Source of the DNA: a virus | DNA length: 41,184 nt | Virus genome (UHGV): UHGV-1355377 | Reading direction: 5' to 3' (one strand) | Program-made: the position numbers and the translations under genes | The notes under the pieces: model-generated | The model's input: the letters and a program-made list of their open reading frames with translations, nothing else | Told to the model about the DNA's origin: nothing | Database searches by the model: none | Shown here: positions 16,750 through 21,237 of the stretch, in pieces | How positions within the stretch are numbered: position 1 is the first letter of the stretch | How the letters are laid out: each line of letters begins with the position of its first letter

Positions 16750-16871
16750 CTTATTGCAACTTTTTTACAATAACTAGCCGATTTTTTGCAAACAAAAAGC
16801 CAGCCGACCAATGGCTGACTAATGTGGTAGTTAGCACTTTTCCCAAGTAAAGTGCTAATAGTGCCAACAAA

Positions 16872-16950: not shown

Positions 16951-17138
16951 TTTATTTCAGAAATAAAATCCCCAAGAAAGTTAATATGATTATATCATGA
17001 GTAAATGTATTTGAAAATACTATCTCATAGTACGTATTGTAAAAAGTATATTTAGTAGAAAATAAAAAAAGCCAGATTGCTCCGGCTGTGAGAAATATTT
17101 TCGACATAGTTATTATACCACAAAAGGAGCGATTCCAC

Positions 17139-17555
17139 TTGATTCAATTGCTAAAAGAAGTAGATTTTCGACAAACAAAAGCGAATGCCAGAAATGTGTT
17201 GAAGAATTTTAGACGTTTAGAGCGAATAGCTGGTCGCTCTTTGATAGATTTAAAATCACCAATTATTACAGATATGCCTAAAAGCCAAAGTCATGGGAAC
17301 AAAGCAGAAGATGCGCTAGTACAATTAGCAGATGCAGAAGCAGAAAGAGACGCAATTTTATCTGGGCTTATGGCATTAAGCCTAACTAGCAGACAAATTT
17401 TGCACTATAGTTTCTGTGTGCAGGACCATTACTCTAATTACAAGATTGCTAGAGAAGTCGGCTATTCCGAAAGAAGTATTCAAAGAATGAAATCAGAAGC
17501 TTTGATTGAATTCGCAGAAGCTTACCGCAATGGAAAAATAATTGCATATAAATAA
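17139..17555 (+). CDS. arpU: ArpU-family phage late transcriptional regulator
   Basis: About 138 aa, sigma-region-4-like C-terminus (YKIAREVGYSERSIQRMKSEALIEFAEAY). Canonical position a few genes before terS. Start TTG 17139 after AAAGGAG. Confidence 0.65.
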   Translation: MIQLLKEVDFRQTKANARNVLKNFRRLERIAGRSLIDLKSPIITDMPKSQSHGNKAEDALVQLADAEAERDAILSGLMALSLTSRQILHYSFCVQDHYSNYKIAREVGYSERSIQRMKSEALIEFAEAYRNGKIIAYK

Positions 17556-17558
17556 TTT

Positions 17559-17587
17559 TTGGCGGTTTTTTGGCGTAAAGTTGGCGG
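17559..17587 (+). repeat. Three TTGGCG(G) direct repeats phased 11 bp apart, immediately after the arpU stop
   Basis: TTGGCGG at 17559, TTGGCG at 17570, TTGGCGG at 17581, each followed by T-runs. One helical turn spacing suggests a protein-binding array. Confidence 0.45.
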
Positions 17588-17596
17588 TTTTTATAC

Positions 17597-18158
17597 GAAT
17601 TTGAATGCTAATATAGTAATATCGAAAGTCAAAGAAATGGACACATTACACAACGCTTTCTGGTTTAGTCACCGTTTGATTTGACTTTCGATGGTCACTT
17701 GCAGACTTACGTTCTCAATAAAATGAAGTGAGGTGAATAACCTCCTCTTTTTTCTACAGGTTTGCAAGTGACACAAATAGTTGCTAGGGATGCAGTAGTA
17801 ACTACCTGATTCATACTAGTCGAGGTTAGGTATATTGCTCTATCCCAGCATATGACGATAAGAACATTAACCAGATCTCTGCGGCAGCTGCTTACGCACG
17901 AGAGCAATTCCTAAACTCATAGAGTAGCAGCTAGGTACGTTTAGGATAAACTTAATCAATTGTTTTTGCTGGTGTTTGATTGATCGGTCACTGTGGTGGA
18001 ATATAGACCAAACAAGGTGCAAATCCTTGTCAGTGACATAATCATTTTAGCCGTGAAAGTCTGCGAAAGCTACGTCCTGATGGGAAAACATTCTGACGAG
18101 AGTGTGCAAAGGTTAATTTGATTTATTAGCAATTGCTAGGAGGTAGCTCCTTCTGGTA
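17597..18158 (+). ncRNA. Candidate large structured noncoding RNA (ORF-free, multiple long-range inverted repeats) ending at the tRNA
   Basis: No credible ORF. 13-bp hairpin at 17631-43/17680-92. CACTTGCAA/TTGCAAGTG pairing at 17695 and 17760. Terminator-like hairpin GAGGT-gaata-ACCTC with T-run near 17738-17768. Flanked by a tRNA and a strong terminator at 18330-18358. Confidence 0.35.
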
Positions 18159-18232
18159 TGGCGTGTAGCTCAATTGGTGAGAGCGGTTGGTTTTCAATCA
18201 AGTACATGCAGGTTCGACTCCTGTCACGTCAA
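18159..18232 (+). tRNA. tRNA-like gene, anticodon UUC (Glu) by manual folding
   Basis: Acceptor TGGCGTG/CACGTCA with one G-U. D arm GCTC-AATTGGTGA-GAGC. Anticodon arm GTTGG-TTTTCAA-TCAAG with U33, A37 and one G-G mismatch at 27:43. Variable loop TACAT. T arm GCAGG-TTCGACT-CCTGT. No encoded CCA. Confidence 0.55.
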
Positions 18233-18329
18233 TAAGTAGCTTTTGCTGCTTAAATAAAAATATCGTCAATAATTCAAATGTAACTACCTTTACGATCGAA
18301 TGACGGTTAAGATTTTCCCTCCTATCTGA

Positions 18330-18362
18330 GACTGCACTTCTGAGTGCGGTCTTTTTATTATT
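18330..18362 (+). terminator. Rho-independent terminator (GACTGCACT-tctg-AGTGCGGTC + TTTTTATT)
   Basis: 9-bp stem with one G-U, followed by a T-run. Closes the ncRNA/tRNA transcription unit. Confidence 0.6.
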
Positions 18363-18412
18363 CGCATAATCAGTTATTCTGTATATATAAATTTGTAAAG
18401 GGGATAACGATT

Positions 18413-19273
18413 GTGGGAGAGAAAGCAAATGCAGTTAAAAATTTTTTATTTGAAAATGTTTTGTCAATAGTAGCTGATCAGGGAAAAGACTTTCTAAAAG
18501 AAAATGCTTTACCTTTATTAACAAATGAAATTGTGAAGCAAGGTGGTGATATATTGATTGATTACGGAGCTGGTTTGATACCGGGCATTGGGGGAGCTAT
18601 AACTGAGTTTAGGACGAATAAGAAAATAAGAAACTTAGAGATTATGGTTCAAGCAATCAGTAGAAGAAACGAAGAATTGAAGGAGAAATTTGAAAAACAA
18701 TCTTTAGAAAATAAGGAAGTTTTAGACGAAATATTTGAAATGGTCATGAAGAAAATTGAATCTACTAATCAAGCAGAAAAAATTGAATTTATGATTAATG
18801 GTTATTCAGAATTTTTGAATTTGGATAATCCATCTTTTGATGTGGCTTATTTATATTTTGATACGCTTGATAAACTGACTATTTTAGATATTTCAGTTCT
18901 TAAATTGTCCTATAAAACCAATACATTTGCTGATATCGATGGATACAATAACTATACAGAGTTATTAGAAGCATTCGATATCAATTACGACCAATATGTT
19001 GCAGTTAGAGAGAACTTATATCGGTTAGGCTTAATGCAAAATGAATATGATGATAAGCTTGCAAAAGACATAAAAAAAATGCAAATTGCTATTGAGGAAA
19101 TTAGAAATTCTACAGAGAGCATATTAAATTCTTTGTCTGGGAAAAGAAAAATAAAATTGAAAAGTCTAACTAGCAAAAGTAAGATAAGTCTTAAAGCGAA
19201 GGATAGATTGAAAATATCAAAATTTGGAAAAGATTTTATACGCTTTTTTATTATCAATAATCAAGAAAAATAG
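18413..19273 (+). CDS. Hypothetical cargo protein in the arpU-terS hotspot (coiled-coil, Gly-rich hydrophobic N-segment, basic tail)
   Basis: GTG start 18413 after AAAGGGG SD. DILIDYGAGLIPGIGGAITEF hydrophobic segment. C-terminal KRKIKLKSLTSKSKISLKAKDRLKISKFGK. No assignable family. Confidence 0.5.
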   Translation: MGEKANAVKNFLFENVLSIVADQGKDFLKENALPLLTNEIVKQGGDILIDYGAGLIPGIGGAITEFRTNKKIRNLEIMVQAISRRNEELKEKFEKQSLENKEVLDEIFEMVMKKIESTNQAEKIEFMINGYSEFLNLDNPSFDVAYLYFDTLDKLTILDISVLKLSYKTNTFADIDGYNNYTELLEAFDINYDQYVAVRENLYRLGLMQNEYDDKLAKDIKKMQIAIEEIRNSTESILNSLSGKRKIKLKSLTSKSKISLKAKDRLKISKFGKDFIRFFIINNQEK

Positions 19274-19338: not shown

Positions 19339-19481
19339 AGGTAGCGTTAGTGTCAAAATTAAGATAGATTGTAGTTTCTGAACTTAAGTTTTTAAAAAAG
19401 GAGCGCTACCTTATAAAGAGTATAACAGGTATTTGTGTATCTGTCGCACATTTACATAAAATTAATTAGGAGGTGAATAAC

Positions 19482-19943
19482 ATGATAAGGAATCCAAAAC
19501 ATCAGGTTTTTGCTGATGAATGGCTGATTGATATGAATGGTACGAGAGCGTATAAAGTCGCATATCCAAACATAAAAAAAGACACCACAGCAAGAGTGAA
19601 TGCAAGTAGACTGCTAACAGATGCTAACGTGAAGCGATATATTGATGAACAGCTAGAAAAGATGCAGAACGAAAGAGTTGCAGATGCACAAGAAGTCCTA
19701 GAGTATCTCACTAGCACCATGCGTGGTGAAAAAATGAAAGGTGTTTATAATACCGAAACAACTAATGATGAAGGGGAAATATTTACGCATCAGAAAAGCT
19801 ATGAATATACTCCTAGCACGGAGGAGAGGACTAAAGCAGCGGAATTACTTGGTAAACGTCATGCGCTGTTCACTGACAAACAACAAATAGAAGTTACTGA
19901 AATGCCAGTATTTGTTGATGATATCGGTGATGATGATGGTTAA
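19482..19943 (+). CDS. terS: Terminase small subunit
   Basis: IRNPKHQVFADEWLIDMNGTRAYKVAYPN is a typical TerS (P27-like) N-terminus. AGGAGGTGA SD before ATG 19482. Immediately upstream of, and overlapping, terL. Confidence 0.75.
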   Translation: MIRNPKHQVFADEWLIDMNGTRAYKVAYPNIKKDTTARVNASRLLTDANVKRYIDEQLEKMQNERVADAQEVLEYLTSTMRGEKMKGVYNTETTNDEGEIFTHQKSYEYTPSTEERTKAAELLGKRHALFTDKQQIEVTEMPVFVDDIGDDDG

Positions 19944-21237
19944 GAAAAAACTATCAGAATTATTACCGAAAAAATTTCATTCGGTATGGAGAGCAACTCT
20001 TAACTCGGACATACTGAATATTGTTTGTAAGGGTGGACGCGGTTCTGGTAAATCATCAGATATTGCACATATTATTACTCAATTACTTATGAGGTATGCT
20101 GTCAATGCGGTTGGCATTCGATATGTTGATAATACATTAGAACAATCAATCTACGAGCAAATGAAGTGGGCGATTGAACAGCAAGGGGTAACGCATCTAT
20201 TTAAATTTAATAAATCACCGTTAAGAATCACATACATACCTCGTGGGAATTATATGATTTTCAGAGGTGCCCAAAATCCCGAAAGAATCAAGTCTTTAAA
20301 AGATAGTAGATTCCCGTTTGCGATTGGCTGGATTGAGGAGTTAGGCGAGTTTAAAACTGAAGATGAAGTAACGACCATTACCAATTCACTTTTACGTGGT
20401 GAATTAGGAGATGGTCTTTTTTATAAATTCTTTTTCAGCTACAACCCGCCAAAACGTCGACAATCTTGGGTGAACAAAAAATATGAATCTAGTTTCCAAC
20501 CTGAGAATACATTTGTTCATCACTCTACTTATAAAGATAATCCTTTTATTTCGAGAGAATTCTTGAGAGAAGTGGAGGCAGCAAGAGATAGAAATCCTTT
20601 GCGTGCTAGATGGGAATACGATGGTGAAGCAATCGGTTCTGGAGTAGTTCCATTCAGTAACCTAAAAGTGGAGAAAGGCTGTATAACTGATGAAATGGTT
20701 GCTAATTTTGATAATATCAGAAACGGTCTTGACTTCGGCTATGCTACTGATCCGTTAGCGTTCGTTCGATGGCATTATGATAAAAAGAAAAATGGTATCT
20801 ATGCTATTGATGAAATTTATGGTGTGAAAATTAGTAATAGGGAATTAGCTAAAAAACTACATGAAAAGGGCTATCAAAATGATGAAATTTTTTCTGATTC
20901 TGCTGAGCCCAAAAGTAATGCAGAGTTAGTAAATGAGCATGGTATCAATCATATAAAAGGTGTTAAAAAAGGCCCGGATTCGGTTGAATATGGTGAGCAA
21001 TGGCTAGATGACTTAGATTTTATTTGTATCGATCCATTGAGGACTCCAAATATAGCTAAGGAATTTGAAAACATTGATTATCAGACTGATAGAGATGGTA
21101 ATCCTAAACCGAGACTAGAAGATAAAGACAATCATACAATTGATGCCACACGTTACGGATTTAACGAAGACATGTGGGCGAAGAAAAAAACTAAAATTAG
21201 TAAAAATCAAAGAAACAAAATAAAAAGAATGTTTTAA
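19912..21237 (+). CDS. terL: Terminase large subunit
   Basis: Walker A-like CKGGRGSGKS, an ATPase domain then a nuclease domain with conserved acidic residues. About 440 aa. Start ambiguous between 19912 and 19936. Confidence 0.85.
   Translation: MLMISVMMMVKKKLSELLPKKFHSVWRATLNSDILNIVCKGGRGSGKSSDIAHIITQLLMRYAVNAVGIRYVDNTLEQSIYEQMKWAIEQQGVTHLFKFNKSPLRITYIPRGNYMIFRGAQNPERIKSLKDSRFPFAIGWIEELGEFKTEDEVTTITNSLLRGELGDGLFYKFFFSYNPPKRRQSWVNKKYESSFQPENTFVHHSTYKDNPFISREFLREVEAARDRNPLRARWEYDGEAIGSGVVPFSNLKVEKGCITDEMVANFDNIRNGLDFGYATDPLAFVRWHYDKKKNGIYAIDEIYGVKISNRELAKKLHEKGYQNDEIFSDSAEPKSNAELVNEHGINHIKGVKKGPDSVEYGEQWLDDLDFICIDPLRTPNIAKEFENIDYQTDRDGNPKPRLEDKDNHTIDATRYGFNEDMWAKKKTKISKNQRNKIKRMF

Follow-up and report, generated by a model that had tools for sequence, protein, structure and literature searches.

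The window analysed here, 41,184 nucleotides of virus genome UHGV-1355377, carries downstream of its arpU-type late transcriptional activator gene a stretch of 857 nt (from the arpU stop at 17555 to a GTG start codon at 18413) that is free of open reading frames (ORFs), as a preliminary description of this DNA had noted. That description went on to propose, for positions 17556-18362, a large ornate RNA of the GOLLD, ROOL or HEARO kind. The stretch is indeed non-coding, belongs to the + strand and lies in the late leader beside a tRNA, but it is a mosaic of independently shuffling modules rather than one RNA (Table 1). What is new is a family of tRNA-Leu-like elements (TLEs), of which the window holds only a minimal relic, together with the invariance of B1b, one part of a non-coding module here called B1.

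The phage of the window is a temperate phage of Enterococcus faecalis. Positions 17556-18362 are 99.8% identical to Efs 1-1-1, 98% to vB_EfaS_IME197 and 94% to phiFL2A, and there are partial matches to phiFL1A-C, phiFL3A/B, phiEf11, VEsP-1, SEsuP-1 and the E. hirae phage EH-TP1. The arpU product is 99-100% identical to gp33, the ArpU of phiFL2A.

Table 1. Features from arpU to terL, with their positions in the window (MFE, minimum free energy; z, z-score of folding)
Feature	Position	Strand	Evidence or remark
arpU-type late transcriptional activator gene	17088-17555	+	phrog_248, E 4.9e-46
Three 7-nt direct repeats, ArpU binding boxes, 11-nt spacing	17559-17587	+	read from sequence
Putative ArpU-dependent late promoter	17590-17617	+	promoter scan, 9/12 matches
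Leader hairpin 1 (14-bp basal stem and upper stem)	17620-17693	+	MFE -24.1 kcal/mol, z -3.6, 0/200 shuffles as good
Leader hairpin 2, outer stem ~17 bp (17693-17709 / 17757-17773)	17693-17775	+	z -5.1
B1, 210-nt non-coding module	17775-17984	+	~55 E. faecalis-phage loci
Minimal tRNA-Leu-like element (TLE), 52 nt	17987-18038	+	fold, z -2.0
B2, 120-nt non-coding module, terminal hairpin (~18135-18157) directly 5' of the tRNA	18039-18158	+	z -2.25
tRNA, anticodon UUC (Glu by anticodon only)	18159-18232	+	ARAGORN TTC; Rfam RF00005, 58.8 bits against a 29-bit threshold
3' tail: post-tRNA hairpin 18233-18252, intrinsic terminator stem 18328-18353, T tract to 18358	18233-18358	+	z -5.2
orf286, 286-aa ORF, GTG start, between leader terminator and terS	18413-19273		phrog_11520, function unknown
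terS	19473-19943		Terminase_2
terL	19912-21237		

Modules of the ORF-free stretch

The modular organisation became apparent from an alignment of 12 phage records with ~55 IMG/VR loci (given here by L numbers) retrieved with two B1 oligomers. Hairpins 1 and 2 were found in all relatives with an ArpU leader. B1 was present in a subset of relatives only and was absent from some close ones. It occurred without B2 in phiFL3A/B, L027 and L033, where in phiFL3A/B another sequence is swapped in for B2, and it was joined straight to the tRNA in L023, L041, L161, L162 and L166; conversely B2 occurred without B1 in L073, L078, L090 and L097. The pre-tRNA hairpin of B2 is also conserved in EH-TP1. In other relatives (L073, L064, L108, L131 and others) short accessory ORFs (100-212 aa) lie between hairpin 2 and the TLE; one of them encodes a DUF7448 protein and the rest are without a Pfam domain. 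Since the contents of this slot vary (B1, small ORFs), it acts as a hot-spot for cargo where the late operon begins.

Folding of the + strand over 17556-18158 gave an MFE of -182.9 kcal/mol with z -4.7, against only z -2.1 for the - strand, and the excess structure resides in discrete + strand pieces, namely hairpin 1, hairpin 2, B1a, the TLE, B2 and the tail. B1 itself is made up of two unlike parts. B1a (17775-17860) is a hairpin (z -2.9) that occurs in three allelic forms with 72-86% identity, whereas B1b (17861-17984) is 96-100% identical where the neighbouring modules fall to 72-86%, and exceeds even the coding sequence of arpU in conservation. The earlier picture of some 600 highly structured nucleotides therefore holds for the discrete hairpins but not for the most conserved 127 nt (B1b, 17861-17987), which fold no better than shuffles (z -0.5). 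Similarly, the GC-rich blocks that had been remarked upon do have raised GC, but modestly so (0.40-0.42 as against 0.25-0.39 in the flanks).

Comparative evidence for a structured B1 was sought with RNAalifold, the covariation check that the preliminary description had suggested, and among the 48 pairs predicted from 21 unique B1 sequences none showed compensatory changes. Searches with nhmmer, using a B1 profile and B2, found no distant homologues of either module, a second scan of IMG/VR with a B1b 18-mer returned close variants only, and no Rfam match to B1 was obtained at E<=10. Complementarity of B1 to the rest of the prophage did not exceed 12 nt, the same as for shuffles.

Membership of known RNA classes was examined with Rfam 15, applied to the whole window at gathering threshold and, under permissive filters up to E<=10, to 17400-18500. 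At gathering threshold the tRNA was the only match in the window. The permissive search added three matches at chance level. One was to a snoRNA and one to MicF, over the terminator; the third, the sole intron match, was to a group II fragment (group-II-D1D4-5, 12.6 bits against a threshold of 34.5 bits, E 6.8), again over the terminator but on the minus strand. There was no covariance-model match in the window to ROOL (RF03087, gathering threshold 99.1 bits) or GOLLD (RF01998), and none to HEARO, the IscB omega RNA, nor is there an HNH/IscB ORF beside the region, the neighbouring ORFs being ArpU, phrog_11520, terS and terL; nor did GOLLD, ROOL, HEARO or a group I or II intron appear even at E<=10. 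The same models detected a full-length ROOL with 260.7 bits (E 1.5e-58) in L063 and with 262.9 bits in L140. When the L063 ROOL was compared with the region by BLAST, only chance-level 16-mers emerged; one stretch of 16 nt that resembles the P1 strand of ROOL (AAACTTAATCAATTG) was set aside as being at chance level (E 0.2). The covarying multistem junctions and pseudoknots typical of ROOL are not seen in B1, with its 210 nt, 0 compensatory pairs and the z of -0.5 over B1b. Of the assignment to a GOLLD/ROOL/HEARO-like class only the genomic context survives, that is, a prophage late leader with a tRNA at 18159-18232. The lack of an Rfam match is one part of what, by the preliminary description, would refute its proposal. 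It is also true, as the assignment supposed, that the slot is able to hold ornate RNAs, since in L063 a ROOL lies between an ArpU-type leader and a tRNA-like element.

It could still be argued that the ~600 nt are a single large RNA of a new, ornately structured kind, with a function like that of ROOL or GOLLD, which Rfam misses because it has diverged too far or is too new. The z of -4.7 for the whole + strand, the high conservation among E. faecalis phages and the ROOL in the same slot of L063 would all agree with this, as would the known occurrence of ROOL and GOLLD near phage tRNA islands (PMC12286853, PMC5737381). The discrete hairpins, however, account for the z-score of the whole region, the modules come and go independently of each other (B1 without B2, B2 without B1, B1 fused to the tRNA), the most conserved 127 nt lack excess structure, 0 of 48 predicted B1 pairs are compensatory and Rfam has no match at E<=10, all of which make a single RNA improbable.

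A second alternative, that the region is a degraded protein-coding gene, draws on the ORFs of 100-212 aa that relatives carry between leader and TLE, such as the DUF7448 protein, and on an annotated ORF in the equivalent gap of EH-TP1. Against this, a tblastn search of 17556-18412 with 45 ORFs that relatives carry in the slot found nothing in B1 or B2. B1 moreover contains 3-8 stops in every one of its six frames, and 1-nt and 3-nt indels among variants ignore reading frame. This is the least probable of the explanations considered here.

The invariance of the primary sequence of B1b without excess RNA structure, upstream of the terminase genes, might instead point to a site that acts as DNA, in packaging, replication or recombination. 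Against this, the packaging modules that follow B1 differ: terS comes next in phiFL2A, phiFL3A has a methyltransferase block, and in the window there is orf286 with a Terminase_2 terS. B1 is also absent from close relatives. The IME197 record ends ~1.2 kb downstream, which would place the genome end in or near terS and not in B1. A DNA-level site is accordingly thought very improbable.

A family of tRNA-like elements

The element between B1 and B2 reads GTCACTG-TG-GTGGAATATAGACC-AAACAAGG-TGCAAAT-CCTTGT-CAGTGAC-A. Its ends form a 7-bp acceptor stem, GTCACTG (17987-93) with CAGTGAC (18031-37), followed by a discriminator A at 18038, and a T stem of 6 bp, ACAAGG (18012-17) with CCTTGT (18025-30), closes the loop TGCAAAT, which is canonical save for G at position 55. 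In its acceptor and T parts the window TLE thus agrees with the pattern of the family (7-bp and 6-bp stems, loop T-[G/T]-C-R-A-W-T). The remainder is reduced: in place of the Leu-type D arm GCGG-AAWRGGTAGA-CGC and a central insert there is a residual D arm, GTGG-AATATAGA-CC, from which the GG has been lost, and there is no insert, anticodon or variable arm. Neither ARAGORN nor Rfam calls the window element, with no anticodon arm, as a tRNA.

Full forms lie at the same position in VEsP-1, L016 and L033; in these and in EH-TP1 the element has a complete tRNA-Leu-type D arm (TGGCGGAAWRGGTAGACGC) and 80-200 nt inserted before the T arm. Among relatives that share the scaffold with a full D arm the inserts are 25-200 nt. 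The minimal form was found in ~38 loci as 5 sequence variants, and in the variant carried by the window the change from G-C to A-T at the base of the T stem is compensated. Deletion variants keep the 5' strand GTCACTGTGG, fused to the tRNA. The outer stem of hairpin 2 (GGTCACT...AGTGACA, 17693-17699 / 17766-17772) shares its first 6 bp with the acceptor stem of the TLE (17987-17993 / 18031-18037), so that an alternative pairing of 17766-71 with 17987-92 could loop B1 closed.

A pattern based on the Enterococcus 3' half matched more than 119 loci in an IMG/VR scan. Unique versions number 55-63 and range from 52 to 249 nt in length, and ARAGORN called only two of 55 Enterococcus TLE relatives as tRNA. 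The exact 3' half was found in 10 Enterococcus species among the GTDB species representatives. An ArpU gene on the same strand precedes the TLE by 150-1729 nt in 81 loci, and TLEs are also present, unannotated, in the tRNA islands of the 150-kb E. faecium phages EFP01 and EfV12-phi1. When the D-arm sequence alone was used for the scan, at least 120 loci from very diverse samples were obtained; among the matches listed, 91 of 113 new sites could not be called as tRNA, and they had the same layout with different acceptor stems.

The evidence that these diverse sites are related in fold comes from their pairing. Among the matches listed, a 7-nt strand that can pair with the 7 nt preceding the D arm directly follows a T arm at 136 of 161 unique sites, compared with a mean of 6.4 and a maximum of 10 when acceptor strands were swapped as a control. 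The same matches include 61 distinct acceptor stems, and the TGCAAAT loop with a 6-bp T stem, giving a 13-bp acceptor/T stack, is found in 62 of 116 unique elements; a stack of that length predicts that EF-Tu would bind poorly. An alignment of the scaffold only, with inserts removed in silico, had 98.3% of its cells paired (74% for shuffles, 28-52% for slid controls) and double changes at 12 of 16 pairs, counts that come from elements selected for pairing and are not phylogeny-aware, so that the swapped-strand control is the fairer statistic. The family fold is tRNA-like, combining a covarying 7-bp acceptor and a T stem of 6 bp with a D arm of the Leu type and a hypervariable central insert.

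The commonest neighbours among the 67 diverse loci listed were a phrog_248 activator upstream (11 loci) and a terminase downstream (9 loci). In two loci a ROOL precedes a TLE, at a distance of 14 nt in L063 and of 168 nt in L140. Other orphan RNAs were also seen in the vicinity, a drum RNA (71.5 bits; L195, 3449-3554) ~100 nt downstream of a TLE and an sRNA of the rli28 family (98.9 bits; L157, 2089-2271, from E. gallinarum) ~230 nt from another. In L167, L210, L218, L242, L256, L261 and L275 a second insertion interrupts the T loop (GGTG|ACTATACGAGT...CTCGG|CAAATCC), and in L191, L194, L197, L208, L219, L241 and L271 the central insert contains an internal hairpin with a canonical T arm (GGTTCGAWTCC).

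No antisense or second-site matches of TLE inserts were found in any of the fetched loci, and Rfam detected no introns, riboswitches or ribozymes in the inserts of 11 phage relatives, 15 large-gap loci and 7 long-insert loci. The GenBank phage records that were checked have no feature over the TLEs, Rfam 15 has no matching model and a description of the family was not found in the literature open to searching. Several known classes were tried and rejected. ARAGORN finds no tmRNA. YrlA gave no Rfam match over the TLE in the window or its relatives, and its topology differs. Inserts in the form of group I introns of tRNA-Leu were discounted, there being no Rfam intron match and most inserts being far too short; some motifs are reminiscent of cyanobacterial tRNA-Leu introns.

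The late promoter, leader hairpins and leader tRNA

Directly after the arpU stop are the boxes TTGGCGG (17559-65), TTGGCGT (17570-76) and TTGGCGG (17581-87). In phiFL2A three 7-nt repeats just distal to arpU bind ArpU and are needed for ArpU-dependent transcription of terS, the intergenic region lies within the ArpU-driven terS transcript, a terminator in that arpU-terS region was inferred experimentally, and read-through from an upstream promoter was lacking (Quiles-Puchalt et al. 2013, PMC3753634). The window thus has, at 17559-17587, the repeats of an Ltr/ArpU-dependent late promoter, the requirement for which was demonstrated in another phage, phiFL2A. The promoter predicted directly after the third box, with a weak -35 (TTTATA), a 16-nt spacer and the -10 TATAGT at 17612-17617, is the probable late promoter, and its position suggests a start near 17624. 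From the ArpU boxes, the -10 and the published phiFL2A data the sequence 3' of ~17624 is read as the leader of the late transcript.

Among relatives the repeats that follow the late-activator gene co-vary with the activator allele while their spacing is conserved. TTGGCGG accompanies the ArpU of the window, TTAGGG an ArpU of 37% identity (L009/L023), TGTAGGG is found in L063 (420-456) and TGCACTA follows a RinA-like phrog_36 gene (L026). The cassette of B1, TLE, B2 and tRNA is also found behind the RinA-like activator, phrog_36.

The two leader hairpins had been glimpsed in the preliminary description. Its 13-bp hairpin is real but has 14 bp and arms at 17620-17633 / 17680-17693, so that the left arm had been misplaced at 17631-43. 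Its long-range complements exist too, although corrected to CACTTGCAG (17696-17704) and TTGCAAGTG (17762-17770) with one G-U pair, and they are a part of the ~17-bp outer stem of hairpin 2. That stem encloses the internal terminator-like hairpin (17730-17744) and T tract (17745-17753), which the terminator scan recovered as described. RNAalifold on 11 variants of hairpin 2 gave 21 pairs, 3 of them with compensatory double changes (U-A to C-G, G-C to A-U and A-U to G-C) by which its shape is kept. The strong terminator reported after the tRNA was likewise recovered, the stem having 11 pairs of which 5 are G-C. The scan found 8 terminator-like sites in 2.9 kb where 1.1 were expected. Terminator-like hairpins on the minus strand lie at 17070-17087 and 16798-16820, just 5' of arpU, so that terminators on both strands flank the early/late boundary.

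The tRNA was placed correctly, ARAGORN and Rfam being in agreement. In the Rfam alignment the top pair of its anticodon stem is a G-G mismatch. Variants of the leader tRNA were compared in loci L016, L021, L022, L034, L073 and L090, and in L001, L002, L006 and L041. Other loci have UUU on a near-identical body that differs at nt 31 and 36, and one variant has an 8-nt loop. A second type, with the acceptor stem TGGCGTG/CACGCCA, is called Arg-ACG, Arg-TCG or Gln-TTG by ARAGORN; its anticodon stem is unpaired and it scores only 37-43 bits in Rfam. The variant leader tRNAs may be non-decoding or specialised.

Downstream, the slot had been placed between arpU and the terminase genes. It does border arpU, but orf286 intervenes before terS. 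The orf286 product has no Pfam domain, and EH-TP1 has a copy with 87% DNA identity.

Interpretation and comparison with known systems

On balance, positions 17556-18412 probably comprise the promoter of the late operon that ArpU activates in a Phifelvirus-like E. faecalis prophage, together with its long untranslated leader, and are arranged like a small tRNA island with processing at the TLE and tRNA. The start of transcription, read-through of the terminators, processing of the TLE and any function of B1 or B2 are parts of this scheme that we infer. ArpU would bind the three TTGGCGG boxes and fire the promoter whose -10 lies at 17612-17617. The transcript would open with two stable hairpins, the second enclosing an intrinsic terminator, and would continue through B1, the truncated TLE, B2, the UUC tRNA and the strong terminator. 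An acceptor/T-arm minihelix is what RNase P and RNase Z recognise. The host enzymes could thus recognise the TLE and the tRNA and cut the leader into separate small RNAs, and cleavage would set the 3' end of B1 (of ROOL in L063), free B2 and part the late mRNA from the non-coding RNA before it. For the TLE the likeliest role would be that of a processing signal for RNase P and RNase Z or of a stable RNA scaffold.

A wider proposal is offered tentatively. The TLE may be the minimal form of a new and widespread class of tRNA-shaped phage RNA, recognisable by its 7 + 6 bp acceptor/T stack, Leu-type D arm and UGCAAAU loop, with genes at the head of late operons and within tRNA islands. Made by RNase P and RNase Z, such RNAs would serve both as punctuation, releasing ROOL, drum, rli28 and B1, and as a scaffold that stabilises and displays a variable functional domain of 20-250 nt where the anticodon and variable arms would be; B1 would then be the equivalent of ROOL as cargo.

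Several observations weigh against the processed leader and the role given to the TLE. The modules are dispensable, for in phiFL1A, phiEf11 and SEsuP-1 the leader hairpins are followed directly by tRNA-Asn. The extreme conservation of B1b without structure is unaccounted for by a punctuation model. The TLE lacks the D-loop G18G19 and the central domain and may be a decaying relic instead of a processing signal, and the covariation counts for its family carry the selection noted above. Finally, two terminators lie between the promoter and terS, which late transcription would have to pass. Promoter-specific antitermination by ArpU in the manner of Q is a speculation that would fit the published lack of read-through from an upstream promoter (PMC3753634).

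An alternative is that the region is a decaying tRNA island, in which B1, B2 and the truncated TLE would have no function and be spacers or relics of recombination between tRNA-like repeats. In its favour, the window TLE is without the central domain and D-loop GG, the deletion variants join the 5' strand of the TLE to the tRNA at a TGGCG microhomology, the slot of relatives holds unrelated cargo (small ORFs, ROOL) or nothing, some functional phages are wholly without the modules and neither B1 nor B2 has homologues beyond E. faecalis phages. Decay does not readily explain B1b, which stays 96-100% identical in the very loci where flanking modules drop to 72-86%, or the minimal TLE, which in ~38 loci and 5 sequence variants retains 7/7 acceptor pairs and 6 T-stem pairs with the compensated G-C to A-T change. 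Because the TLE keeps exactly the part that is recognised, together with that compensated change, residual processing is narrowly favoured over pure decay, which we regard as unlikely though deserving of weight.

The GOLLD/ROOL lead for the window is removed, and in its place stands the anatomy of an experimentally known late promoter with an unusually long leader. In L063 the ROOL lies 5' of a TLE in a leader that ArpU should switch on, which would provide a defined genetic system for the production and processing of ROOL, and for phiFL2A-type phages an arpU deletion mutant has been published. TLEs tend to be situated between late-activator and terminase genes in diverse phages or in tRNA islands and, if processed and stable, would amount to a class of small phage RNAs that is new.

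One experimental parallel is the Ltr/ArpU system itself: phiFL2A and the window both have three 7-nt repeats distal to arpU and an intergenic terminator, but the 2013 work, in the portion available, saw the intergenic region as promoter and spacer, and B1, the TLE, B2 and the tRNA are undescribed there (PMC3753634). ROOL and GOLLD resemble the region in being non-coding, carried by phages or prophages and situated beside tRNAs, and the order ArpU leader, ROOL, TLE in L063 and the ROOL within a tRNA island with TLEs in L140 bring the two still closer. They differ in size, B1 having 210 nt against ~580 or >800 nt, and the region consists of separable modules without a model match or covariation.

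Other systems offer likenesses to the TLE. Species 1 and 2 of T4 (rnaC and rnaD) are small non-decoding RNAs from a tRNA cluster of a phage, transcribed and processed together with its tRNAs, and rnaC has a canonical T arm. When the two sequences were read, with no alignment, they showed no resemblance to the TLE scaffold; neither a Leu-type D arm nor the TGCAAAT loop nor a T stem of 6 bp is present. In MALAT1-mascRNA and MEN-beta, and in the tRNA punctuation of mitochondria, a tRNA-shaped element lies 3' of a non-coding RNA and a cut by RNase P and RNase Z sets the upstream 3' end. Those systems are eukaryotic, whereas here the same arrangement is suggested by the fold and by a position 2-14 nt after B1 or ROOL. 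Both tmRNA and YrlA combine a mimic of the acceptor and T arm with a large inserted domain that replaces the anticodon arm. However, tmRNA has no D stem and YrlA ends in a Ro-binding stem instead of an acceptor, while the TLEs have a 7 + 6 bp acceptor/T stack and a Leu-type D arm.

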